In this document: positions 5,325 through 64,000 of the stretch, piece by piece | Layout of the letters: every line of letters begins with the position of its first letter | How positions within the stretch are numbered: the stretch's first letter is position 1 | Assembly: GCA_905197115.1 (NCBI GenBank) | Contig: CAJJXN010000001.1 | Coordinates: 1,463-65,462, forward strand | From: an uncultured Bacillota bacterium | Lineage (GTDB): Bacteria; Bacillota_I; Bacilli_A; RFN20; CAG-631 | DNA length: 64,000 nucleotides | Direction of reading: 5' to 3' | Made by a program: the position numbers and the translations under genes | Notes under the pieces: generated by a model | What the model was told of the DNA's origin: nothing | Database searches by the model: none | Seen by the model: only the letters and a program-made list of their open reading frames with translations

Positions 5325-5358
5325 TAAAAAAATGATGATTTTCATCATTTTTTTCTTT
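5325..5358 (+). terminator. rho-independent terminator (aatgatgaTTTTcatcatt plus T-tract)
   Basis: Perfect 8-bp stem and T run after the nagB/zinc-ribbon operon. Confidence 0.6.
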
Positions 5359-8341: not shown

Positions 8342-8383
8342 AAAAGTAGACAATGTTCTTTAAAAACATTGTCTATTTTATTC
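8342..8383. terminator. bidirectional rho-independent terminator between convergent genes
   Basis: tagacaatgtt...aacattgtcta 11-bp stem flanked by an A-run and a T-run. Confidence 0.6.
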
Positions 8384-14490: not shown

Positions 14491-14549
14491 CTTATCACCT
14501 TCTTTTTTATTGTATCAAATTTTTAAAAAAATACAAAGAAAGTCATTCG

Positions 14550-35190: not shown

Positions 35191-35370
35191 ATGGCAAAAG
35201 TTAGAGTTGAAGATACTTGTATTGGTTGCGGTATGTGCGTTAGCTTAGCATCTGCAGTATTTGCTTTTGATGCTTCTGGAGAAAAAGCTGAAGTTATCAA
35301 TAATGAAGTAGATAGTACTGTTGAAGAAGCTGCTGCTAGTTGTCCAGTTGCTGCAATTGTTATTGAATAA
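35191..35370 (+). CDS. 4Fe-4S ferredoxin
   Basis: CIGCGMC...CPVAAI; GGAGG RBS. Confidence 0.8.
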   Translation: MAKVRVEDTCIGCGMCVSLASAVFAFDASGEKAEVINNEVDSTVEEAAASCPVAAIVIE

Positions 35371-35371
35371 T

Positions 35372-35400
35372 TAAAAAGAGGAGAAACTCCTCTTTTTAAT
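35372..35400. terminator. bidirectional rho-independent terminator
   Basis: aaagaggag-aaac-tcctcttt perfect stem between convergent ferredoxin and ribU. Confidence 0.7.
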
Positions 35401-35401
35401 T

Positions 35402-48585: not shown

Positions 48586-48635
48586 AATAAAAAGAAAGTA
48601 TAACTTTTGTACTTTCTTTTTTATGTAACTATTTT

Positions 48636-52191: not shown

Positions 52192-52692
52192 TTAATTGTG
52201 ATATTTGTCTATAATCTCTCTTTTTTCGATTTGTATATATTTTTCAATAATTTGAATATTATCTTCATTAAAAATAATTTGGATTCTTTTTTTATTTTTT
52301 TTATTAGAACAACCAGATTTAAATTTCGAAAGAATATTTAAATTATTGTCATATAAACAAATCCATTTTTCATCAATACTTGTTGTCCAACTAGAATATG
52401 TTGGTAATACTTCAATATATGCTTTTGCATTATTTAAATCTAATTGGGTAATTATACCAAATATTGATTTGACATATAAAATATTATTTTCAACATAAAA
52501 ATATTGTAAATATAATATTCCTCCCAATGTCATCATTAATGAGAAAAACACCATTATGCTACTGAATAATATTTTAATTACTATACCTTCATTCGTTTTG
52601 ATTACTAAAGGACCAATAGAAAATAACAGTGATACTATTGCTAAAACAAAAGAAATTATATAACTATATTTTGGATAACATCTTTTTTTCAT
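52192..52692 (-). CDS. hypothetical membrane protein (2 TM plus C-terminal domain)
   Basis: Same architecture as the 51532-52092 gene; possible paralog. Confidence 0.3.
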   Translation of the reverse strand: MKKRCYPKYSYIISFVLAIVSLLFSIGPLVIKTNEGIVIKILFSSIMVFFSLMMTLGGILYLQYFYVENNILYVKSIFGIITQLDLNNAKAYIEVLPTYSSWTTSIDEKWICLYDNNLNILSKFKSGCSNKKNKKRIQIIFNEDNIQIIEKYIQIEKREIIDKYHN

Positions 52693-53249
52693 ATTATAAC
52701 CACCCCGAATTTAAACTTGATAATATTGAAGAATATCATATATCTAGTAAGATTACTTGTTGTATTAATCAATAATTGATTTGTTCCCCACAATAAGCAT
52801 AAGTTCAATACATATTATATCATATGAATTATTTTTTTCTAAAGCAATTTGATAGGATAGACAAGTTTAAACCTCGTTAATACTAAAAACGAGCCTTGAA
52901 ATTAAAACCATTTCATTATATTTTAAATTAGACAAATTAGTTTAATATTTCACTTAAAAACAATAAAAAAGTTCTAAAAACACTATGTTTTAGAACGTAG
53001 AACTCTTTTGTTTTACCGAGGCTTTTCTTACAAAAAACATGGCAAAGATATACTATTGTAATACAAAGTGCGTATTTCTACTATTTTTATAGACTCTAAA
53101 AAACGCATACTCCTTTTGATTGTTGTTCATCCCCATTGTTGTACTATTAATAAAGTTGACACTAACAGACATAATGCGTACAGCATTTTCAAAATGACGG
53201 CCAAATTTTATCGAAGGAAGAAAAATTGAAATGAAAAAGTTTACTCAAA

Positions 53250-54632
53250 CTATCTCAAAACTGTTATAGAAGCTGTTTGAGGAGATAATTTGAGTTTATT
53301 AGAATATGGAAATCCATTAACAATCGATAGTATAATAGTGATAACACCACCATGTGTAACTAAAAGAATCTTTTTATTTTGATTGTTTTGAATTAGATTA
53401 AAAAATGCACTTTTAATTCGATAATAAAATTCATTAGGAGATTCACCATTTGGATAATGCTCATTCATATCTAATGAAGAAAAGTATAAATTTGAATACT
53501 TTTCTTTAAATGCCTCTTTTGTTAAATTTGCTAATAAACCATTGTTCATTTCTCGAAAATCATCATTAAAAATAATATCCATATTTAACATTTTATTTAA
53601 AATTAAAGATGTTTCTTCTGCTCGTTTTAGGCTACTAGAAATAAAAAAATCATAGGAAGAATCAATTACTTTACAAAGTTCATTTACATCTTGAACGCCT
53701 TTTTCAGTCAAATGATTATTAGACCAACCACCTGTTTTATTTTGTTCGTCTTCTCCATGTCTTACAAGATGAAGTTCTACGTTATAATTCTTTAAATTCA
53801 ATTTTTCTAAAAAAGTAAGTTTATGAAATATGTTTATTATTGCACTAAAACAATCATTTAATGAAATTCCTTTAGTAAATTCGTGTTTTAAACAATAATT
53901 ATTATATAAATCTTTTATTCTATCAAAGGTAAAAATATCGTTTAAAATATTTTCTATATATTTTTGATCATAAGTAGTTCCCCTTGCATGAAAGGTATTT
54001 ATAATAGATGCATTTAAAAGATCGTTATCTATTTTCATTTTGTTTAATAAATACATATCAAAAAAATTTTTAGCTCTTGAATTATTTACCCCTTTTGAAA
54101 TTAACGTTTCAAATTTTTCAGCTATCATCGTTTTTACTGGATAAGCAAAGAGATTATAAGTTTCTGAACAAAATGGAGAGTGATAATTATAACTTATAGG
54201 ATATGGAGTAATAATATCATCAAAACCAATATCAATAGAAAAAATTTTCTTAACATTGTAAAACTGAGCTTGTATTTTAATTGATTTGCCACCATATTTT
54301 GATTTTTCAGCAATATCGTGCACACTAAGAAAAATGTATCTGATATTATCATAATTTTGATTGCATATATCTTTAAAAATGGATTTCAAATCATTTTCAT
54401 TCAATCTATTTCCAATATATTTTAAATCGATATCCATTGTACTTCGCATTTGAATTCCAACAATACTTTGCAAATAAAATCCTCCTTTTATTGCAAAATT
54501 TTGTGAATATTCACTTTTAGATAATCGATATAAAAAGCTCTCAAAGAAAAATACATCCCATGCCTTTTGAATGGAAATTTTGTTGCTTTTAGAATATATG
54601 GAAACTTTTGTTTTTATTTGACTTAGTTCCAT
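53250..54632 (-). CDS. AbiEii/AbiGii-family nucleotidyltransferase toxin fused to a C-terminal histidine-phosphatase (PGAM-like) domain
   Basis: N-terminal FFFESFLYRLSKSEY..FAIKGGFYL...RSTMDIDL (DUF1814 NTase motifs). C-terminal LVRHGEDE...SSSLKRAEET...LVTHGGVI (RHG and second-His motifs of histidine phosphatases). Confidence 0.65.
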   Translation of the reverse strand: MELSQIKTKVSIYSKSNKISIQKAWDVFFFESFLYRLSKSEYSQNFAIKGGFYLQSIVGIQMRSTMDIDLKYIGNRLNENDLKSIFKDICNQNYDNIRYIFLSVHDIAEKSKYGGKSIKIQAQFYNVKKIFSIDIGFDDIITPYPISYNYHSPFCSETYNLFAYPVKTMIAEKFETLISKGVNNSRAKNFFDMYLLNKMKIDNDLLNASIINTFHARGTTYDQKYIENILNDIFTFDRIKDLYNNYCLKHEFTKGISLNDCFSAIINIFHKLTFLEKLNLKNYNVELHLVRHGEDEQNKTGGWSNNHLTEKGVQDVNELCKVIDSSYDFFISSSLKRAEETSLILNKMLNMDIIFNDDFREMNNGLLANLTKEAFKEKYSNLYFSSLDMNEHYPNGESPNEFYYRIKSAFFNLIQNNQNKKILLVTHGGVITIILSIVNGFPYSNKLKLSPQTASITVLR

Positions 54633-55207
54633 CCAATCACCTCAAAAACATTTTTAATTTCATAATATATATCTAATTGTTTTGCATAATCATACAATTT
54701 TTTTAAATTCAAATAATTCCTTTTATATTCATTTATTGCATATACTTTATCTTCATAATCAAAATCTTCTCTTATAAACAAATCACAGATGCATCTTTCT
54801 TTATCATAGCATTTTACTTTATTTCCAAAAGGAGTCACAACCTCAGTTATACCTAAATAAAATGTAGATTTTCTCGATTGTTTAATAATAAAATTCTCAA
54901 TTTTTGGAAGACTTTTACCATATGCTATTGATGCTTCATATTGCTCATAATCTCTATTGGATAGATTATTTAAATATAATGCTGTATCTCCAGAATAAAC
55001 AAGATTACTGTAAAGAATAGAATTTATAAAAAATATATCTTCTACCGCATTATCAGTAATATAAATTCCACGATGAAGTTTTGTTAATTTTCCTTCTCTA
55101 ACTAGTCTTGTGATGTATATGGTGGGAATTCGATGCTCTTTTATTATATTAGAATACAGATACCCGTTATTCATATTTGCTATTTTAAGTATTGTTTCTT
55201 TATTCAT
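54623..55207 (-). CDS. AbiEi-family antitoxin/transcriptional regulator
   Basis: N-terminal AbiEi_4-like wHTH (ILKIANMNNGYLYSNIIKEHRIPTIYITRLVREGKLTKLHRGIY). 10-nt overlap with the downstream AbiEii gene. Confidence 0.6.
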   Translation of the reverse strand: MNKETILKIANMNNGYLYSNIIKEHRIPTIYITRLVREGKLTKLHRGIYITDNAVEDIFFINSILYSNLVYSGDTALYLNNLSNRDYEQYEASIAYGKSLPKIENFIIKQSRKSTFYLGITEVVTPFGNKVKCYDKERCICDLFIREDFDYEDKVYAINEYKRNYLNLKKLYDYAKQLDIYYEIKNVFEVIGWN

Positions 55208-55280
55208 TTTGTTGTTCCTTTCACACTAACATTATATCATTTTGTCAGCTTATTTACAACATTTTTGTGTTTTAAAAAAG

Positions 55281-55308
55281 TTTGATACAATGAACGTTGT
55301 ATCAAACC
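55281..55308. promoter_or_regulatory. perfect 11-bp inverted repeat GTTTGATACAA-N6-TTGTATCAAAC, candidate AbiEi operator
   Basis: Located about 75-100 bp upstream of the abiEi start on the minus strand. AbiEi proteins are known autorepressors that bind inverted repeats. Confidence 0.45.
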
Positions 55309-55361
55309 TATATGTTTTTAATGGCAAGAGTTATCTAAATTGATACAATTTCCGCACCCTT

Positions 55362-55440
55362 AATTGTCTGGCGTGTTTTCTCTCGCACCCTAGCCTTTTG
55401 CCGTGTTTCCTTTCGCACCCCTACTTATCAGTGAACAAAT
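55362..55440. repeat. about 2.5 tandem GC-rich direct repeats of about 30 bp (CGCACCC...GTGTTT(C/T)CT(C/T)T)
   Basis: ccgcacccttaattgtctggcgtgttttctct / cgcaccctagccttttgccgtgtttccttt / cgcacccctactt. Unusual GC content for this genome. Confidence 0.5.
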
Positions 55441-55453
55441 GTCATCGATAAAT

Positions 55454-56086
55454 TTATCGTACTTGTTTTTCCATTATGTAATTCGTCAAGGCAATTCCAT
55501 TTCGTATTACTAGTTGTTTTTTTACTATGTTAAAACCTCTTTGCATAAAGAAATGTTTAGCGGTTATAGACGAGTGCGTAATGACTTTACTTGTCTTGAC
55601 TTCTTTTTCTAATTCGTTACAGATTGCCGTTGCAATACCACGTCGTTGGTAGTCCTTATGAACATACAGCCTATCAAGATAACCCGTTTTATCTATGTCG
55701 CCAAAGCCAACTATGATATTATTTTCAACTGCAACAACCGTATAATGCTCTGATAAAGACTTATTCCATTCTGTCAAATCAATATTGCCTGTTGCCCACA
55801 CATTCAACTGTTCTTCGGAATAATCTTTGGCATTTACAGTATCGTTTGAACTCCAATTTTTACACACGAAACCCCACCCCGATGTCCACCTATAAATGGT
55901 GTAGAGATTTGACCTCCCCCTACCCTTTTTATAAAAATTATTCTCAATTTTTGCTAAAAAGTTGGTAATTTTTGAGAAAGCTTCGTATACGATTGTATCG
56001 TAATTCAAACGAGATAATAGGCTCATCGCTTGGCTCAAAAAGAAAGTAGACTTGAACCAACTGATGAAACTACAATCTTTATGCAA
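55454..56086 (-). CDS. GNAT-family N-acetyltransferase (5' end abutting or overlapped by the IS21 istB stop; likely true start at the ATG at 56026)
   Basis: C-terminal VVAVENNIIVGFGDID...LYVHKDYQRRGIATAICNELE acetyl-CoA binding motif. The ORF-track start is a TTG 8 nt inside the istB 3' end. Confidence 0.65.
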   Translation of the reverse strand: MHKDCSFISWFKSTFFLSQAMSLLSRLNYDTIVYEAFSKITNFLAKIENNFYKKGRGRSNLYTIYRWTSGWGFVCKNWSSNDTVNAKDYSEEQLNVWATGNIDLTEWNKSLSEHYTVVAVENNIIVGFGDIDKTGYLDRLYVHKDYQRRGIATAICNELEKEVKTSKVITHSSITAKHFFMQRGFNIVKKQLVIRNGIALTNYIMEKQVR

Positions 56087-58206
56087 GTGAAATTATTTGT
56101 GCATTTTGTATTAATCTTTTTTGTAATGTTTCCATCAGATGTGAATCAACCTTCATCTCTTTCCATGAGGATAATGGTCTATTCGTAACAATAATTATGC
56201 TTCGTGTTTCTTGTAAGAACATCATTATCTTATAGATTAAAATAAGTTCTTCTTCTGTAGGAGCAATATAGAATACATCATCGATAATGATTAAATCAGC
56301 ATTTAGAATATTATTCCAAACTTTTTTCTTTATTCTTGATTCAGCTAATAAATCATCAAGTGTTATGTATATCACTTTAGCACCTTTTTCTAATGCATTC
56401 ATACCAAGTGTTGATGCAAGTGATGTCTTACCAGTGGAGCAATCACCAACAATAAATATATTTTGTCTTTTTAAAGCAAAGTCAAATTCCTTTAGTTTAG
56501 ATAATTGCCATTTAAGACCATCTGTGATTCTAGTTTCATCAAATATCAATTGTTTTAGTCTTGAGGATTTCTTGATATCTTTTAGTTTATTGGCATTTCT
56601 AATATTCACTTCCTCAAGTAATATTTTATATAGATATTCTTTGTTGGATATCGTCTCATTATTTAAATCAATTGTTCCATTAGCAATATTCTGTAGATTA
56701 AGAATTTTAGCTAATTCTTGTATTTCTTTAGCATCTGCCATTTTCAATCATCTCCTTTCTAATTTCTTCAGCTCTTGCTTTGTAATGTCTAAAAGTATGT
56801 GTAGGAAGATATTTCTTAGCTGTTTTCTCACCCATTTCCATAAGTAACCATGAGCATAGTTCAAATGCAGTACAAATATCTTTAGTTACACAATATGTCA
56901 TTCCTTTAACCAAAATAGTTCTAGAATAGAATTTCTTTAAGCTTCCTATTTTTCTACATTGAACAAACACATATCTAGGTTTTTGTTCTCGTAATCTCTT
57001 CAAATACTTAGTAGCGAATTCACTATCTTTGTATTCAGTAAGTAACACTTCTTCAATTGTAGGTTCTTCTTTAGTTTCTATATCAAGTGGAATAATATTT
57101 CCAATTCCAGATACTAACCTATGCTTACAAAGTAGTTCGCTTGTACTTGCTAGATAAAAAATTAAGAAATCATCATGTCTTTCAATTCTGATTCTATCGC
57201 CTTCATTGATTTGTCCTGTAGGTAACTTATATAGATTATCTCTATATTCAACTGTATCATGATATACAGAATGAACAACAATTTCATCATTTTTCTTTTC
57301 GTAATACTTTTGAAGTTTTGGATATTCTTTTTTGAACAAATCACGAGGAGACTTCTTAGTTGTATCATTAATCATTCTGTTTCCATCATGATCAAGCCAA
57401 TCAATAAATTCTTGATTTAATCTATCTAAGCCATAATAAATTCTTCCATCAAGAAACTGATGTTTGACAAAATCAACTGTCTTTTCAACCTTACCTTTCG
57501 TAGATGGATCATAACCTTTACATAGATAAATAGAAAATCCAGTATCTTTGATGAATTCTTCAAATTCTTTAACGAAGATTACTTCTCCAAGATTCTCTGA
57601 AACAACCATCGTCTTATCTTGGCCATACATAATCATTTGTGTTGTACCACCAAAATAATGAAATGCAGCAATATGTGCATCAATTGTTGTTTTAGCATCA
57701 AATGGATCTACCGAAAAATATGCAAACTTCATTCTCGAATAAGATAAAGTCATACAAAAGAAATAAATTCTAACATTTCTTTTATAGGCTGTTTGCATCA
57801 CATATTGACCAAAATCAACTTGTGCTTCATACCCAGGCTCTGTCTGTTCTCTTAATATGAATTTTCTTGGTGGTTTAATTAAACCTGTTTGTTCCCTTAC
57901 TTTTTTAACATACCTAAAAAAAGTTGAAGTGGGTATTTCAAAATCTGGAAAGTCTTCTTTTATTCTATTTAATAAAACCGTATTGTTTATTTTAGGACAA
58001 ATCTTTAATATTTCAATAATATATTGCCTGTAATTATCTAAAATGAATTCATGTTCTTTTTGAAATGATTCAAAGAACTTTTCATCCTTATCCCACCAAT
58101 TACAAACTGTTTTATATGATAGATTCAATTTTTCTGATACTTTTAATTTTGAAAGACCTAGTTCTTTTAATTCTTGTAGTTTTTTAAATTGTTCAATTCC
58201 TAACAT
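56079..58206 (-). mobile_element. istAB: IS21-family insertion sequence coding region (istA transposase 56728-58206, istB helper ATPase 56079-56747); terminal inverted repeats not resolved by eye
   Basis: IstA: 492 aa, N-terminal HTH MLGIEQFKKLQELKELGLSKLKVSEKLNLSYKTVCNWW plus integrase-core DDE region. IstB: 222 aa, Walker A GDCSTGKTS, typical IstB. The two overlap by 20 nt as in IS21. Confidence 0.85.
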
Positions 58207-58424: not shown

Positions 58425-59348
58425 CTATCTTAAAGAACGATTCATTTGATTAATACATTTTTTCTTTTGTTCAAGATTTGGATGAACATACAAATTTAAA
58501 GTTGTGCTTATATTAGAATGTCCTAATATAACACTTACAGTTTTATAATCACACTTTCCTTCAATACACCTAGTTGCAAAACTATGACGTAGTCCATGAA
58601 ACTTTAAATCTGGTATTTCCAATTTTTTCATTAATCTCTTATAATAATTACGATATGTTCTTGGCTCTGTAGGTTTTTCATCATTAGTTAAAACAAAATA
58701 TTCTTTGTTTACAACTTTCTTTAATGGTTTTAATATCCTTAATAAGTCTGTTGTCATAGGAATATCACGAATTGAATTTTTAGTTTTTGGCGTATCAATT
58801 ATTAATTCAGTTCTTTTAACTCCTTCATCAACTATGTAAATTCTTTGAATGGTTCTTCTGACATAAATAACTCCATTATCTACATCGATATCATCCCAAG
58901 TTAAAGCACACAATTCTCCAATTCTCAAACCAGTGCATAGGCACACATAAATACCTAAATTTTTAAATGTGAAATTTTTTTCAATGTAATCCATAATTTT
59001 TCTCTGGCTTGAACGGTTCAGCACGTCTAGCTCTTCGTTATCTCTTTGAGTTGGAAACTTTATATCAATCTCACAATAATCCAAATACTTATGTTTTACA
59101 CCAAACCTAAGTATCATTTTCAAAACAATTAATATATCCTTAATTGTTTTCTGGCTAAGTCCTTGTTCTAATTTTTTAAAAACAAAATCCTGAACATCAG
59201 CCTCCTTCACTTCTTCCTTATTACCAAAATATGGTAATAGATGATTTTCGACTAAAAGCACGTATGCAGAATATGTAGATTTTTTTACATATTGCTTTTT
59301 GTCTTTTTTCCATAAGTCAATAATTTGACTCAAAAATTTTTTGACCAT
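58425..59348 (-). CDS. tyrosine site-specific recombinase (phage-integrase family), candidate hsdS shufflon invertase
   Basis: C-terminal catalytic motifs HGLRHSFAT and LGHSNISTTLNLYVH (R..H..Y). Located directly beside the inverted hsdS cassettes. Confidence 0.85.
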   Translation of the reverse strand: MVKKFLSQIIDLWKKDKKQYVKKSTYSAYVLLVENHLLPYFGNKEEVKEADVQDFVFKKLEQGLSQKTIKDILIVLKMILRFGVKHKYLDYCEIDIKFPTQRDNEELDVLNRSSQRKIMDYIEKNFTFKNLGIYVCLCTGLRIGELCALTWDDIDVDNGVIYVRRTIQRIYIVDEGVKRTELIIDTPKTKNSIRDIPMTTDLLRILKPLKKVVNKEYFVLTNDEKPTEPRTYRNYYKRLMKKLEIPDLKFHGLRHSFATRCIEGKCDYKTVSVILGHSNISTTLNLYVHPNLEQKKKCINQMNRSLR

Positions 59349-59459
59349 GTTTATTTACCTCCTTTACATTAGTCATTTCTTATATACATAAATTTGCATA
59401 TAAATCAATTAGTTAAGCTATTATTTTTTGAATAATTTGAGTGATAGAATATCCTCAAT

Positions 59460-59477
59460 GTTCCCAATTTGAGATTT
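59460..59477. repeat. 18-bp recombination repeat gttcccaatttgagattt at hsdS 5' ends (copies: 59460-59477 direct, 61785-61802 direct, 61744-61761 inverted)
   Basis: Perfect copies read directly from the sequence; they encode VPNLRF on whichever strand they lie. Confidence 0.8.
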
Positions 59478-60647
59478 CCTGAATTTACTGATGAATGGCA
59501 AAAAAGAAAGTTATTTGAAATGGCGAATTTTTACAAAGGATGTGGAATATCTAAAGAACAATTAAGTACTCAAGGTAATGAATGTATTTTATATGGAGAG
59601 CTTTATACAACCTATGATACAGAAACAATCAATGAAATTAAAAGTAAAACAAATATTGATACCAAAGGGCTATTTTTTGGTAAAAAAAATGATGTAATAA
59701 TTCCATCATCTGGAGAAACTCCAATAGACATTGCTACTGCATGTTGTGTATGTAAAGACAATGTTTTGTTTGGTGGTGATCTAAATGTCATTCGCTTAAA
59801 ATCCGATAATGGCGCATTTATTAGCTGTCAATTAAATGGTAAGCGTAAATTTGATATTGCAAAAATAGCTCAGGGTGCATCAATTGTTCATCTACATAAT
59901 GATGATTTAAAAAAACTATCCTTATATACGCCAAAAGTTTTTGAAGAACAAATGAAAATTGTTGAATTATTTACGTTAATTGATATGAGAATCAGATCCC
60001 AAAACAAAATCATTGAGGAATATAAGTCACTTAAAAATTCAATTATAAATCAATTAATTTTTAATAATATAAAATTAAATCAATATGTTAAATTAAGAGA
60101 CTTTGCAGTTTTAAAAAATGGATATGCGTTTAAAAACAAATCATATACTGATGATGGTAAATTTAATATTATCACTATTGCGAATGTTCAAGGTGATAGA
60201 TATATAAACATATCATCTTGTAATAAAATACATCAAATTCCAAAGGATATTCAACCACATCAAATTTTAGATATTGGTGATATTTTAATTTCACTTACTG
60301 GAAACGTTGGTCGTGTTTCTTTAATTAATATTTCTAATTGTTTATTAAATCAACGTGTAGGTGTATTAAAATTTAAGAATAATGATTTGAAAAAGTATAT
60401 ATTTCAAGTGATTTCCAATAAAATATTTGAAAATAAAATGATTTTGAAAGGACAAGGAGCTGCACAAAAGAATATAGGAAATGAGGATATAGAATCATTT
60501 TTAATTCCTTTTTCTCAAGATATTTCATATATAAATGAAATAGTAAAGTTATTAGAATGTTTTGATGAAAAAATAGCCATTGAAAAGCAAATCATCAATG
60601 ACTATTTATATCAAAAAAAATATTTATTAGCTAATATGTTTATATAA
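59469..60647 (+). CDS. hsdS: Type I restriction-modification specificity subunit HsdS, cassette A (no ATG start; begins inside the conserved N-terminus)
   Basis: Conserved N-terminus ..VPNLRFPEFTDEW, central QNKIIEEYKSL, C-terminal YQKKYLLANMFI. In-frame stops at 59442-59447 with no ATG between them and the conserved motif. Confidence 0.8.
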   Translation: MRFPEFTDEWQKRKLFEMANFYKGCGISKEQLSTQGNECILYGELYTTYDTETINEIKSKTNIDTKGLFFGKKNDVIIPSSGETPIDIATACCVCKDNVLFGGDLNVIRLKSDNGAFISCQLNGKRKFDIAKIAQGASIVHLHNDDLKKLSLYTPKVFEEQMKIVELFTLIDMRIRSQNKIIEEYKSLKNSIINQLIFNNIKLNQYVKLRDFAVLKNGYAFKNKSYTDDGKFNIITIANVQGDRYINISSCNKIHQIPKDIQPHQILDIGDILISLTGNVGRVSLINISNCLLNQRVGVLKFKNNDLKKYIFQVISNKIFENKMILKGQGAAQKNIGNEDIESFLIPFSQDISYINEIVKLLECFDEKIAIEKQIINDYLYQKKYLLANMFI

Positions 60648-60700
60648 ACATGTTCTGTAAAAGATATGCTTTTTGCTTTTTATAAAGTGAAAGTATATCT
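60633..60700. repeat. about 68-bp repeat at convergent hsdS 3' junctions (second copy 62981-63050, about 94% identical, same orientation)
   Basis: tatataaacatgttctg(t/c)aaaagatatg(c/a)tttttgctttttataaag(t/c)gaaagtatatctttttc. It contains a palindromic core aacatgtttatataaacatgtt in which both converging genes end ..NMFI-stop. Confidence 0.8.
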
Positions 60701-61806
60701 TTTTCTATTTGTAATTTTTCCTTTAAATCATTAATTATACAAATAAACTTTTCTGCATTCTCATCGCATTGTGGAACTTGAAGTTTTAAAAACCAATCTT
60801 TATTGAGATGTTTTAAACCACTACCTTCAAATCCTATATAATCTATATACTTTTGTAGAACCGAAAATACTATTGAATAGAATTTAGTTAATAAGGAATT
60901 TCTAAATCTTATTACAAGGCAATCTGACATGGTTGTAAATTTTCCATTGTGATATTTAAAATTCGCTTTTCCCCCAGTATTTGCAATGATATATTCACCA
61001 TCAAAATCATAAGTGTTGAAATATTTAACTGTTTCTTCTTCATTTGTAAAGAATGGGTAATTGCCACCAAGCAAACCATCTCCTGATTGATGTTTTGTTT
61101 TTCTTTCAAAAATACAAATCTCTTTTACCGGTATAGTCTTAGAAATAGATTTCACCATTATATAACTTATCGAAAATATTTGAGATTTGATTTCCTCAAT
61201 GATTTTGTTTTGAGTTGATATTAATAAATCCATTTTACTTAAAACAATTCCTATTTTATTTTGAATTTCTAAGGTTGGAAAGTATAAAGAAATTTTTTCT
61301 AAACCATCTTGACTAATATTATAATGCTGAGCTCCTGCACCCATTTTTATAATGATTTTTCTAGCGGTTGGGGTATCTAAAAGATGTTTAAAAAATATAG
61401 GATCGTATTCTCCAATCTTTTTACCTCTAATGATAAAACCACCAAAAACAGATTTATTTACTTTATCCAAATAAACATTAGAGCGTCCAATATCTTCAAT
61501 TGTTTCTGAACTTCTTTGAAAAAGAATATCTCCATATTCAACAATAAAATTATTAAATGTGTCGATATTTATATCAACAAATCCTTTAATGCAATCATAC
61601 ATTATATAATCATTGTTTAAAATATCGGAAACTGAAATATATTTAGTTCCTTTTCCATATTTTTCTTGACTTTCATTTAATCCATTTTGAAATTTTAGTA
61701 ATGTTTTGATTTTTATCAATTTCCACTCACTATTATCATTCTCAAATCTCAAATTGGGAACTTTTGAGATTGTTTTTTTCTTATGTTCCCAATTTGAGAT
61801 TTTCAA
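60640..61806 (-). CDS. hsdS: Type I R-M specificity subunit HsdS, cassette B (inverted orientation, ATG start)
   Basis: MKISNWEHKKKTISKVPNLRFENDNSEW, central QNKIIEEIKSQ, C-terminal YKKQKAYLLQNMFI. Convergent with cassette A, with an 8-bp stop-codon overlap. Confidence 0.85.
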   Translation of the reverse strand: MKISNWEHKKKTISKVPNLRFENDNSEWKLIKIKTLLKFQNGLNESQEKYGKGTKYISVSDILNNDYIMYDCIKGFVDINIDTFNNFIVEYGDILFQRSSETIEDIGRSNVYLDKVNKSVFGGFIIRGKKIGEYDPIFFKHLLDTPTARKIIIKMGAGAQHYNISQDGLEKISLYFPTLEIQNKIGIVLSKMDLLISTQNKIIEEIKSQIFSISYIMVKSISKTIPVKEICIFERKTKHQSGDGLLGGNYPFFTNEEETVKYFNTYDFDGEYIIANTGGKANFKYHNGKFTTMSDCLVIRFRNSLLTKFYSIVFSVLQKYIDYIGFEGSGLKHLNKDWFLKLQVPQCDENAEKFICIINDLKEKLQIEKDILSLYKKQKAYLLQNMFI

Positions 61807-62993
61807 AGTATTCAGAAATAATCAAACTATGGCGATGTTCAGATTTCTTAAAAACATTTTCTACAAATTCTCTTTCTTGGGATCAACTTAGTTATATAGA
61901 TGAATCTGAGTTTAAAAATCTTCACTATGGATTAATACATAATGGAGCACCAACATTAATAAATTGTGAAGAATATCAATTGCCTTTTATGCAAAGCAAA
62001 ATAAAAAATTATACGCTATGCAAAAATGGTGACATTATATTTGCAGATGCCTCCGAAGACACAAAAGATATTTGCAAACCAGTAGAATTCATTAATATTG
62101 CAAACAACAAAGTTGTATCTGGATTACATACAATTCACGCACGAGATATAAAAGAATTAACAGTGATTGGGTTTAAGGGGTATTTATTTTCCTCATATAA
62201 TTTTCATAAACAAGTACATAGATTAACTCAAGGAACAAAAATATTTTCAATTAATCCTGGGAATTTTAAAGAAATGTATGTGGGAATTCCTGATGTAAAT
62301 GAACAAAAAGATATTGTTTATTTATTTAGTAAAATTGACAAGCGTATTGAATCCCAAAACAAAATCATTGAGGATTTAGACACTTTAAAGAAATCAATTA
62401 GTCTATTGATTTTTGGAGATAATAGCGAAATAAAGCTGAACTGGAAATTAGTGAAATTATCTAATGTTTTAAAAGAAAGAAAAACTTATGATATTAAAGA
62501 ATCCAAATATCCACACGCTACCTTATCAAAAGAAGGTATATACGCTAAAATAGATAGATACAATCGTGATTTTTTAGTTAAAGATGAAGAAAAGAATTAT
62601 AAAGTAACCCATCTTAACGACATTTGCTATAATCCGGCTAACTTAAAGTTTGGTGTGATTTGTTTAAATACTTATGGTGATGCTATTTTCTCTCCGATAT
62701 ATGTAACATATGAAGTAAGAGCAGGTAATGATCCTTATTTTATTTCACAATATATCACTAATCCTACATTTATTGGTCATATTAGAAAATATGAACAAGG
62801 AACGGTATATGAAAGAATGGCAGTTTCTTCTGAAGATTTTTTAAAAGGGGAAATCAATTTGCCAACTTATCAAGTTCAACTTTATATTTCTAAAATATTT
62901 AAATCTATCAATGACAAAATGAATTTGGAATTACAAGTTTTAGAAAAATATAAAGAGCAGAAAAAATTCCTACTCTCTAATATGTTTATATAA
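61764..62993 (+). CDS. hsdS: Type I R-M specificity subunit HsdS, cassette C (no ATG start; head-to-head with cassette B)
   Basis: ..VPNLRFS.., central ESQNKIIEDLDTLKK, C-terminal YKEQKKFLLSNMFI. In-frame stop at 61707-61709 and no ATG before the conserved N-terminus. Confidence 0.8.
   Translation: MRLFFSYVPNLRFSKYSEIIKLWRCSDFLKTFSTNSLSWDQLSYIDESEFKNLHYGLIHNGAPTLINCEEYQLPFMQSKIKNYTLCKNGDIIFADASEDTKDICKPVEFINIANNKVVSGLHTIHARDIKELTVIGFKGYLFSSYNFHKQVHRLTQGTKIFSINPGNFKEMYVGIPDVNEQKDIVYLFSKIDKRIESQNKIIEDLDTLKKSISLLIFGDNSEIKLNWKLVKLSNVLKERKTYDIKESKYPHATLSKEGIYAKIDRYNRDFLVKDEEKNYKVTHLNDICYNPANLKFGVICLNTYGDAIFSPIYVTYEVRAGNDPYFISQYITNPTFIGHIRKYEQGTVYERMAVSSEDFLKGEINLPTYQVQLYISKIFKSINDKMNLELQVLEKYKEQKKFLLSNMFI
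62343..62377. repeat. 35-bp mid-gene repeat cgtattgaatcccaaaacaaaatcattgaggattt (perfect inverted copy at 63602-63636; 23-bp core also at 59997-60019 direct and 61193-61214 inverted with 1 mismatch)
   Basis: Encodes the conserved central (R)IESQNKIIE(D/E) coiled-coil linker between the two TRDs in all four hsdS genes. Confidence 0.8.
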
Positions 62994-64000
62994 ACATGTT
63001 CTGCAAAAGATATGATTTTTGCTTTTTATAAAGCGAAAGTATATCTTTTTCTTTTTTGATTTTTTCATCCATTAAAGATAGCAATGAAATAATCAATTTA
63101 TTTTTATAATAACCATAATCAGGAATTGCAATACCTTTTATAAAATCAGCATTAATATTGCTTTGCGTTCCTGTTTCAAGATATCTATGTAATTTTTTTT
63201 CTTTAAAATATGATAGATAATAATATAAAAAATCTAGTATAACTTTATCAGTTATAGTCATCGAAAATATTGCTTGACTTGTTGTTAAAGGGATTTTATT
63301 AATAGCAACTTGTCCTACTGATGCATACATAGACAATACTAATGAATCCTTTGGAACTATCCAAGCAGTTGAGTTTTCTAAGCCTTCTTGAGTTAATGTC
63401 TTCTGAGTCCAATAAATATACTTTCCTTGTTCAGTCATATCAGAGATACTTAAAAAAGGGATTTCTCCAGCATAATATTTTTTATTTGTAGATTTTGGTG
63501 TTCCACCGGCTCTGCCCTTTTCGTAAAAAGAACTCAAAGTGTTTCGGTGCATAGGAATTTGCGAAAAAAGTTTATCGCTAATTATTTTCTTTTTAATAAT
63601 TAAATCCTCAATGATTTTGTTTTGGGATTCAATACGCTTGTCAATTAATCCAAGCATAGTTGATATTTTTGTCATTTCTTCTATAGAATCTGGATACTTA
63701 ATATCTGCATTCGAAACTAAACTCCATTCTGCTCTAGGCATTTTTGTTCCACTCGAAGTGCTTGCTATTTTCATAAAATATTCTGTTTGTAGATAGTAAA
63801 ATAAATAACTATTAAGCATTGCAGAGCTATGCAATGCCCATATTTCTGTAGAGCAAACACCGTTAAAATTTGAAAACAAAAATTTTCTTAAATATGGTCT
63901 TAATTTTCCAAAAAGAACATCTCCTTTGAAAAATTTTGTTTTTATAGATTTTTGATTCTTAGCTTTAAATATTTCTAGCATCCTACAAGAATCTTGTTCT
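62986..64000 (-). CDS. hsdS: Type I R-M specificity subunit HsdS, cassette D, 5'-partial (continues beyond the window end; probably the expressed copy downstream of an off-window hsdM)
   Basis: GDVLFGKLRPYLRK TRD motif near the window edge, central ESQNKIIEDLIIKKK, C-terminal YKKQKSYLLQNMFI. The reading frame is still open at position 64000. Confidence 0.8.
   Translation of the reverse strand, partial: EQDSCRMLEIFKAKNQKSIKTKFFKGDVLFGKLRPYLRKFLFSNFNGVCSTEIWALHSSAMLNSYLFYYLQTEYFMKIASTSSGTKMPRAEWSLVSNADIKYPDSIEEMTKISTMLGLIDKRIESQNKIIEDLIIKKKIISDKLFSQIPMHRNTLSSFYEKGRAGGTPKSTNKKYYAGEIPFLSISDMTEQGKYIYWTQKTLTQEGLENSTAWIVPKDSLVLSMYASVGQVAINKIPLTTSQAIFSMTITDKVILDFLYYYLSYFKEKKLHRYLETGTQSNINADFIKGIAIPDYGYYKNKLIISLLSLMDEKIKKEKDILSLYKKQKSYLLQNMFI

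Follow-up and report, generated by a model that had tools for sequence, protein, structure and literature searches.

The best-described relative of the system treated here is AbiE of Streptococcus agalactiae (PDB 6y8q, 9hlo), a type IV toxin-antitoxin (TA) and abortive-infection system recently reclassified as type VII. Binding of its antitoxin, AbiEi, leads the toxin, AbiEii, to autophosphorylate T65, a modification that abolishes the nucleotidyltransferase (NTase) activity of AbiEii and by which the toxin is neutralised in vivo; in vitro, SaSTP, a PP2C phosphatase, strips the T65 phosphate and restores activity, and the role of phosphatases in vivo is stated by the authors to be unresolved (bioRxiv 10.64898/2026.01.19.700257). 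In MenAT1 and MenAT3 (TglT/TakA) of Mycobacterium tuberculosis, whose toxins belong to the same superfamily, MenT1 and MenT3 use the same autophosphorylation switch (PMC11375011), which is likewise inducible. The phospho-acceptor, T39 of MenT1 or S78 of MenT3, lies two residues before the catalytic DxD, and phosphorylated MenT3 is dephosphorylated in vitro by the PstP phosphatase. Such toxins are widespread, with parts in defence against phages and in the physiology of M. tuberculosis, and act at tRNA 3' ends, their known substrates being ordinary tRNAs with a 3'-OH. Work of 2024-2026 has shown that autophosphorylation silences AbiE and MenT toxins, and has explicitly left open the route by which they are reactivated. 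The abiE cassette described here lies on the minus strand of a 64,000-nucleotide stretch of DNA from an uncultured Bacillota bacterium (GenBank assembly GCA_905197115.1, contig CAJJXN010000001.1, positions 1,463 to 65,462; hereafter the window), and in it an AbiEii toxin and a histidine phosphatase are joined in one polypeptide.

AbiE is a known family; this variant counts as new because its toxin has gained an enzymatic domain and the active-site loop of its antitoxin is altered. The original prediction, made from the window's letters without database searches, had supposed the architecture to be uncharacterised. Our literature search, which did not cover all journals, bears this out: it turned up no paper in which AbiEii/DUF1814 occurs together with a histidine phosphatase or a phosphoglycerate mutase, and a 2026 review of Abi systems does not mention a phosphatase. 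Annotation pipelines call these fusions only "AbiEii family" or "histidine phosphatase family". A natural toxin-phosphatase fusion makes the question of reactivation testable by a few point mutants (H292A, T65A).

The AbiE cassette and its two-domain toxin

By all the sequence criteria tested, the locus is a complete AbiE (AbiEi-AbiEii) TA and abortive-infection cassette. Its two open reading frames (ORFs) are exactly as first predicted, with the antitoxin gene first and a 10-nucleotide (nt) overlap of abiEi stop and toxin start (ATGGAACTAA; Table 1). The abiEi product matches the PADLOC AbiEi profile (PDLC02225, E 1.5e-43) over amino acids (aa) 2-191 and Pfam AbiEi_4 over aa 27-50 (26.2 bits, cut-off 25), and aligns over its full length with S. 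agalactiae AbiEi (PDB 6y8q/9hlo_A, E 1e-24). This full-length alignment and the overlapping two-gene operon are common to the window and S. agalactiae systems; an inverted-repeat operator in the promoter, for which the window has an imperfect candidate, may be a further common feature. The toxins are less alike: that of the window, at 460 aa as against 287, carries an added C-terminal histidine phosphatase. A toxin of about 460 aa with such a domain had been read from the ORF list, and profile searches recover both parts with a clean junction between them. Pfam finds PF08843 (AbiEii) at aa 33-229 (E 1e-27, 98 bits, cut-off 22.5) and PF00300 (His_Phos_1) at aa 287-459 (E 2.7e-34, 119 bits, cut-off 21.7), while PADLOC AbiEii extends over aa 4-282 (E 5e-76), which puts the NTase up to aa 282 and the phosphatase from aa 287. 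The motifs by which the domains had been recognised are all present: K49-G50-G51 and D67-I68-D69-L70 in the NTase; L289-V290-R291-H292-G293-E294, S332-S333-S334-L335-K336-R337 and L424-V425-T426-H427-G428-G429 in the phosphatase. An AlphaFold2 (AF2) model of the toxin, built on a 59-sequence alignment, has a predicted local distance difference test score (pLDDT) of 92.4, a predicted template-modelling score (pTM) of 0.90 and a well-ordered linker; the two domains are thus predicted to form one rigid body. Comparison of their net charge and isoelectric point yielded nothing informative.

How often the fusion occurs, a question raised with the original prediction, can be read from two surveys. 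In a search of 5.8 billion proteins both Pfam domains were found together in more than 110 clusters, of proteins about 460 aa long and at identities of 38-57%; their sources label them "AbiEii/AbiGii toxin family", "histidine phosphatase family" or "PhoE". Among the best 80 loci of a genome survey limited to one genome per species, 26 are fusions and the other 54 ordinary unfused AbiEii; the cassette of the window thus falls in a distinct AbiE clade with two-domain toxins. The hosts are mostly metagenome-assembled genomes (MAGs) from rumen or gut labelled Bacilli, Erysipelotrichaceae or Acholeplasma, with one Acholeplasmataceae chromosome and one Clostridia MAG (35% identity) in addition. An overlapping abiEi gene precedes the toxin at every fusion locus where upstream DNA is present. 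No phosphatase homologue was found within 4 kb of the 54 unfused AbiE loci, that is, no split three-gene system, and no neighbouring gene family recurs around the 80 loci. Viral contigs showed no clear phage carriage, full fusions making up two of 63 matches, both on short contigs.

Both active sites are retained across the family. Over 97 full-length fusion homologues the NTase residues K49, G50, G51, R63, T65, D67, D69, D134, D139, E172, K173, R186, K188 and D192 are invariant or nearly so, G50, G51, D67, D69, K188 and D192 being invariant and T65 kept in 97/97. The phosphatase set R291, H292, G293, R337, E361 and H427 is conserved to at least 98% at each position, H292 in 96 of the 97. To judge from these residues the C-terminal phosphatase is catalytically intact and apparently active. 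The notion that two genes were artificially joined by a frameshift or an assembly error, a doubt attached to the original prediction, is ruled out by comparative data: some related loci are indeed frameshifted, but a JGI metagenome contig that spans the same region (possibly from the same sample as the window) codes for the identical 460-aa protein, and more than 100 full-length homologues with the same junction come from NCBI, ENA, JGI and Logan assemblies. The frameshifted loci are L018, L021 and L026, in which the fusion gene is split by frameshifts or stops into 2-4 ORFs, as pseudogenes or through assembly errors. That the window encodes a real, conserved, bifunctional AbiE toxin together with its cognate AbiEi can be taken as practically certain.

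Possible roles of the fused phosphatase

In its NTase half the toxin is close to S. agalactiae AbiEii (PDB 9hlo_B), which matches aa 14-269 (E 1e-44) and has an identical R63-S64-T65-x-D67-x-D69, K188 and D192. RSTMDIDL of the window aligns with RSTVDIDF of 9hlo_B such that R63-S64-T65 correspond residue for residue and T65 falls on the mapped phospho-acceptor T65. One feature of type VII systems is thereby present, a Ser/Thr two residues before the catalytic DxD (T65-M66-D67), placed as in MenT1 and MenT3. The MenT toxins themselves are distant in sequence, being absent from the PDB matches at E 0.01, and have no fused phosphatase, and MenA1 is a small antitoxin unrelated to AbiEi. T65 occupies the least confident loop of the AF2 model (block 61-70, pLDDT 71), which is therefore probably flexible.

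A second type VII feature has changed, in that the acidic residues of the antitoxin loop that enters the active site are replaced. The AbiEi loop reaching T65, D85-E86-I87 in S. agalactiae, is N84-R85-D86 in the window (54944-54958), at the same length; it reads S-N-[KR]-[QS] in 23/23 fusion loci, where the D85 position is never acidic, and [ST]-[DE]-R-x-P in about 45 of the 54 unfused loci. On the toxin side R117, which in S. agalactiae is the salt-bridge partner of this loop, is S117 in the window.

The phosphatase domain itself is modelled with pLDDT above 90 throughout, as an alpha/beta fold of PGM/PhoE type. Foldseek relates it with a probability of 1.00 to structures of PspA, CobC, PhoE and Rv2419c (template-modelling scores of 0.65-0.76 on targets 4ij6, 6nru, 1h2e and 3hjg), the top match being a phosphoserine phosphatase. 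With the small branch-1 phosphatases (PhoE/YhfR 1h2e, CobC 6nru/3hjg, PspA 4ij5, Rv2419c) it shares fold, the R-H-G...R...E...H set and a similar size with a cap; unlike them, it is joined to a toxin and has its own signature. Its scores lie under every curated equivalog cut-off, for example 93.1 bits against 162.9 for TIGR03162 (CobC). NCBIfam NF005567 (Rv2228c-type) matches toxin aa 285-442 at E 2e-16, with 60 bits against a cut-off of 326; the Rv2228c-type RNase H/CobC-like acid phosphatases likewise fuse a nucleic-acid enzyme to a CobC-like histidine phosphatase, but with another partner domain and without TA context.

The domain alone was searched against 1.8 billion representatives and the matches aligned. 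The alignment places it in a subfamily with the signature RHG.D...GGWS, RE.NNG and PNGESP, whose other members are mostly stand-alone, about 190 aa long and set in varied operons. Further fusions join it to NUDIX (P0148), GrpB plus NUDIX (P0198), GNAT (P0162) and a RelB antitoxin domain (P0297), and a HIT gene comes directly next to, and after, the stand-alone P0306. In a neighbour-joining tree (100 bootstraps) the stand-alone proteins P0127 and P0128/P0305 and the RelB fusion P0297 nest within the clade of AbiEii fusions, in 99-100% of bootstraps. The stand-alone genes (L082:5001-5591, L085:5001-5570 and L086:5001-5573 for P0127, P0128 and P0305) do not sit beside an AbiEii: P0127 is preceded by two unannotated ORFs unlike the NTase, and P0128/P0305 directly follow a PF04199 'Cyclase' gene. 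P0297, on a 1-kb contig (L150:172-897), consists of a RelB N-terminal domain and a phosphatase with the linker and C-terminal end of the fusion clade.

A tRNA nucleotidyltransferase has been paired with a histidine phosphatase independently among the CCA-adding enzymes, at least 15 clusters of which carry a His_Phos_1 insertion. These proteins (P0190, P0329-P0339, P0341, P0344) are 654-715 aa long, with His_Phos_1 after the HD domain, and their nearest unfused kin are named Candidatus Dojkabacteria. Like the window toxin, CCA-adding enzymes, whether of this Dojkabacteria type (the P0190 family) or E. coli Cca with its HD domain, combine a tRNA 3'-end NTase and a phosphatase in one polypeptide; the HD domain of E. 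coli Cca has a role in end repair. They differ in having a PolyA_pol head rather than DUF1814 and in being housekeeping enzymes rather than toxins. The phosphatase of the CCA fusions is generic, without the GGWS/NNG signature, and so offers an analogy only. A literature search pairing CCA-adding enzyme with histidine phosphatase gave no paper. In one further protein, P0219 (1087 aa), His_Phos_1 matches are inserted at about aa 541-697 of a class I aminoacyl-tRNA synthetase.

Since AbiE toxins are silenced by the T65 phosphate and the toxin here carries a phosphatase, this domain is the obvious candidate for a built-in eraser. By analogy with S. agalactiae AbiE, the reading that we favour, with a probability of roughly 0.4, is that the fused phosphatase may erase the inhibitory phosphate on T65. 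The toxin would extend tRNA 3' ends by nucleotides and thereby block translation, and AbiEi would repress the operon and neutralise the toxin via induced T65 autophosphorylation, each of these as in S. agalactiae; the fused phosphatase would remove the T65 phosphate, in cis or between molecules. Toxin silenced in this way would form a reserve that remains off only with AbiEi present and bound, and loss or blocking of AbiEi, for instance upon phage infection, would switch the toxin on quickly. The cassette would become independent of host Ser/Thr phosphatases. More tentative still is the whole scheme, a self-resetting type VII system in which AbiEi would both write the phosphate on T65 and shield it with its altered N-K/R loop, and the toxin's phosphatase would erase it once AbiEi is gone. 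If T65 is the target of the domain, the AbiE/MenT toxin family would gain its first dedicated phosphatase, and the fusion would provide a Rosetta-stone argument for dephosphorylation as the physiological activation step.

Several of the above observations would fit an eraser: an NTase close to that of S. agalactiae AbiEii, with T65 invariant and in a loop predicted to be flexible; a phosphoserine phosphatase as the top match to the modelled domain; alteration, in the aligned sequences, of both the AbiEi loop and R117; and, among the unfused cassettes surveyed, no recurrent adjacent phosphatase gene. Other observations weigh against this reading. A constitutive phosphatase acting in cis would oppose the antitoxin unless AbiEi shields the phosphorylated T65. 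The nearest solved structures are of small-molecule enzymes (phosphoserine phosphatase, CobC, PhoE, Rv2419c, HFP), no protein phosphatase (Sts, PGAM5, SixA) being among the top 50 structural matches, and the subfamily's ties, through fusion or adjacency, are to nucleotide enzymes (NUDIX, HIT, GrpB). The presence of P0127 and P0128/P0305 in non-AbiE operons implies that the activity of the domain is useful without AbiEii. T65 itself contributes to the NTase activity of AbiEii, and its conservation is therefore not specific to phosphorylation. Lastly, the fusion-type AbiEi loop is found also in two unfused loci, L032 and L034; the loop change is a single-clade event that these loci share, and so is a lead and no proof.

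The idea put forward with the original prediction was that the phosphatase acts on the toxin's substrate and not on the toxin. In a broadened form, taking in nucleic-acid and nucleotide substrates, it is the strongest of the alternatives and to be taken seriously, though we think it somewhat less probable than an eraser. At the acceptor end of the tRNA the domain might take off a 3'-phosphate, an opened 2',3'-cyclic phosphate or the 5'-phosphate nearby, leaving an end for the NTase to extend or to disable further, or it might hydrolyse a nucleotide phosphomonoester linked to the reaction. Such a role would suit toxins that work on tRNA 3' ends, and the company that the subfamily repeatedly keeps (NUDIX in P0148, GrpB and NUDIX in P0198, HIT beside P0306, GNAT in P0162) points the same way, as do the nucleotide-like or small-molecule phosphatases (CobC, PhoE, HFP) that are its nearest curated families and structures. 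The independent CCA-adding enzyme fusions and the stand-alone descendants at work in other operons are consistent with it too, and a rigid two-domain protein, as modelled, would suit a shared substrate. Against this, the tRNAs on which AbiEii and MenT toxins are known to act already have 3'-OH ends, so that a phosphatase step is unnecessary; to our knowledge no branch-1 histidine phosphatase acts on RNA termini; the CCA-fusion phosphatase, without the GGWS/NNG signature, is comparable by analogy only; and the altered AbiEi active-site loop of the fusion clade is left unexplained. A role at the tRNA end, if real, would amount to a two-step attack on the acceptor stem and be the first known RNA-end function of a branch-1 histidine phosphatase. 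Whether the phosphatase acts on T65 or on the toxin's substrate, the known repertoire of TA and defence effectors would be widened.

Less probable again is a role as a sensor or gate, or as an unrelated passenger. The ligand or substrate of the domain would then be a small phospho-metabolite, either a stress or phage-derived signal or the substrate of some housekeeping reaction, and its binding or hydrolysis would control the NTase allosterically or have no mechanistic link to it. Effectors of defence systems often carry fused ligand-sensing domains, and a subfamily consisting mostly of stand-alone enzymes in varied operons, from whose fused branch the domain has departed to be re-used, the RelB fusion included, accords with such a loose connection. 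A chance passenger is hard to reconcile with the long retention of the fusion, identity having fallen to 35-38% with both active sites intact and the length of the linker fixed, or with the rigid interface that the model predicts (pTM 0.90), and for a pure binding sensor the full, conserved catalytic set would be superfluous.

The abiE promoter and the upstream palindrome

The predicted abiE promoter of the window is a good one of sigma-70 type. The 120 nt upstream of abiEi were aligned for 22 fusion loci. A common design emerges, with TGTTGC(A) at -35, an extended -10 box, the ribosome-binding site GAAAGGAAC, and inverted repeat arms that flank the -10 box; examples are listed in Table 1 together with the corresponding elements of the window. 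The best 9-nt repeat between -70 and -1 pairs at 8/9 positions or more in 13/22 loci and perfectly in six, as against 11% and 0.3% of shuffles, and the strong inverted repeats of the relatives lie at about -50 to -12. The candidate operator of the window pairs at 5/6 positions, or 6/9 when extended, so that its assignment rests on homology of position and sequence. The recognition helix of the window's AbiEi, PTIYITRL, groups with loci bearing CT[AG]ACA arms, as in the window's promoter-proximal site. The geometry is similar to that published for the Rv2827c operator, whose repeats, 13 bp apart, straddle the sigma-factor site. It differs from that of S. agalactiae, in which two 23-bp repeats lie 3 bp apart; in the window, arms separated by an 11-nt gap flank the -10 box. 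Published operators of the AbiEi family fall within -1 to -131, sometimes with several repeat pairs.

A palindrome further upstream had been proposed as the AbiEi operator. It is, as claimed, a perfect 11-bp inverted repeat, lying one base lower than the position first given, but in the related loci it is around the -10 box that the repeats are found, and the palindrome, at -100 to -73 and upstream of the -35 box, looks like a terminator. Its RNA would fold into a hairpin with a stem of 11-13 bp (-13.5 kcal/mol, z -5.1), followed on the transcribed strand by a T6 tract that lies 147 nt past the stop codon of a GNAT gene. We consider it somewhat more probable than not that the palindrome, as an intrinsic terminator or insulator, closes the GNAT/IS21 transcription unit upstream and shuts the abiE operon off from it.

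That it serves instead as an AbiEi operator, primary or accessory, is improbable. A perfect 11-bp repeat within 100 nt of the start codon does lie inside the published operator range, an extra exact copy of its half-site occurs 58 nt upstream, there is a loose likeness between GATACA in the half-site and the GATTACA arms of L003-L007, and the promoter-proximal repeat of the window is degenerate (6/9). The palindrome is, however, off the promoter, with its ACA and TGT arms spaced by 8 rather than 11 nt; among 21 related loci, which have their repeats around the -10 box, none has a counterpart, save L001 with a different hairpin and T-run; the T6 tail and the -13.5 kcal/mol hairpin match the terminators of this genome; and the AbiEi recognition helix groups with loci bearing arms of the proximal type. 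An accessory role would also be a minority view, kept alive by the third exact copy of ATTGTATCAA, a 10-mer with 3 copies in the 64 kb, two of them here and one at 14509.

Perfect inverted repeats of at least 11 bp number 12 in the window, as against 0.68 expected from shuffles. These repeats of 11-15 bp (for example 5326-5354, 8347-8375, 35369-35401 and 48589-48621) mostly stand at gene ends and are flanked by A- and T-tracts; the palindrome is of the same type as the other 11. In this genome of 28% GC they appear to act as intrinsic terminators, AT-rich and often bidirectional.

Features and surroundings of the cassette

Table 1. Elements of the abiE locus, by position in the window, followed by the inverted repeats flanking the -10 box at four related fusion loci.
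Feature	Positions	Strand	Details and basis
Toxin gene, AbiEii/DUF1814-histidine phosphatase	53250-54632	minus	460 aa
Linker (aa 271-285) and histidine phosphatase branch-1 domain (aa 286-460), with stop	53250-53786	minus	PF00300
H292 codon CAT, predicted nucleophilic His of RHG motif	53757-53759	minus	read from sequence
Toxin NTase domain, aa 1-282	53787-54632	minus	PADLOC, PDB 9hlo_B, conserved residues
T65 codon ACA, homologous to mapped S. agalactiae AbiEii phospho-acceptor	54438-54440	minus	alignment
abiEi, antitoxin and transcriptional repressor	54623-55207	minus	194 aa; N-terminal winged helix-turn-helix, C-terminal antitoxin domain
Ribosome-binding site AAAGGAA	55221-55215	minus	promoter scan
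Candidate AbiEi operator, CTGACA (55248-55243)-N11-TGTTAG (55231-55226)	55226-55248	minus	flanks -10 box; imperfect
Outer repeat pair around candidate operator, TGTTGT and ACAACA	55261-55256 and 55215-55210	minus	
Predicted abiE promoter: -35 TTGTAA (55259-55254), 17-nt spacer, TGaTATAAT, -10 hexamer (55236-55231)	55231-55259	minus	scan 10/12, TG extension
Palindrome GTTTGATACAA-N6-TTGTATCAAAC (55280-55307), then TTTTTT (55279-55274)	55274-55307	minus	candidate terminator
Third exact copy of ATTGTATCAA	55340-55349	minus	58 nt upstream of palindrome copy at 55282-55291
L001 repeat, ACACTGACA-N11-TGTCAGTGT			flanks -10 box
L004 repeat, ACGATTACA-N11-TGTAATCGT			flanks -10 box
L017 repeat, GTGCTATCA-N11-TGATAGCAC			flanks -10 box
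L024 repeat			15-bp arms, -35 box included; flanks -10 box

The cassette is set among defence genes and mobile elements. Downstream of the toxin gene a 557-nt ORF-free gap (52693-53249, where ORFs do not exceed 53 aa and Rfam has no match, and present equally in the JGI gene calls for the matching contig) is followed by two small membrane-protein genes. An Rfam scan of 52600-56200 gave no match, and neither did distant BLAST of the intergenic region against plasmids.

On the upstream side a GNAT gene (55454 to about 56030) stands between abiE and an IS21 element, whose istA (492 aa) and istB (222 aa) occupy 56079-58206, with about 50 nt from the istB stop to the intact GNAT start. Terminal inverted repeats of the IS21 element were sought and none found, so that its ends are undefined. 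Between the GNAT stop and the palindrome are two direct repeats, GGGTGCGARAGRAAACACG, at 55372-55390 and 55402-55420 (minus strand), 30 nt apart; part of a third copy, GGGTGCGGAA, lies near 55351-55360. The GGGTGCGARAGRAAACACG repeats occur nowhere else in the window, and Rfam gave no match to them. IS21 terminal repeats were considered as a source of these GGGTGCG direct repeats or of the palindrome and were rejected, there being no inverted copies upstream of istA.

Beyond the IS21 element, at 58425-63981, are four Methylase_S (hsdS) genes in alternating orientation and a tyrosine recombinase gene (58425-59348), a layout that suggests a phase-variable specificity shufflon of a type I restriction-modification system.

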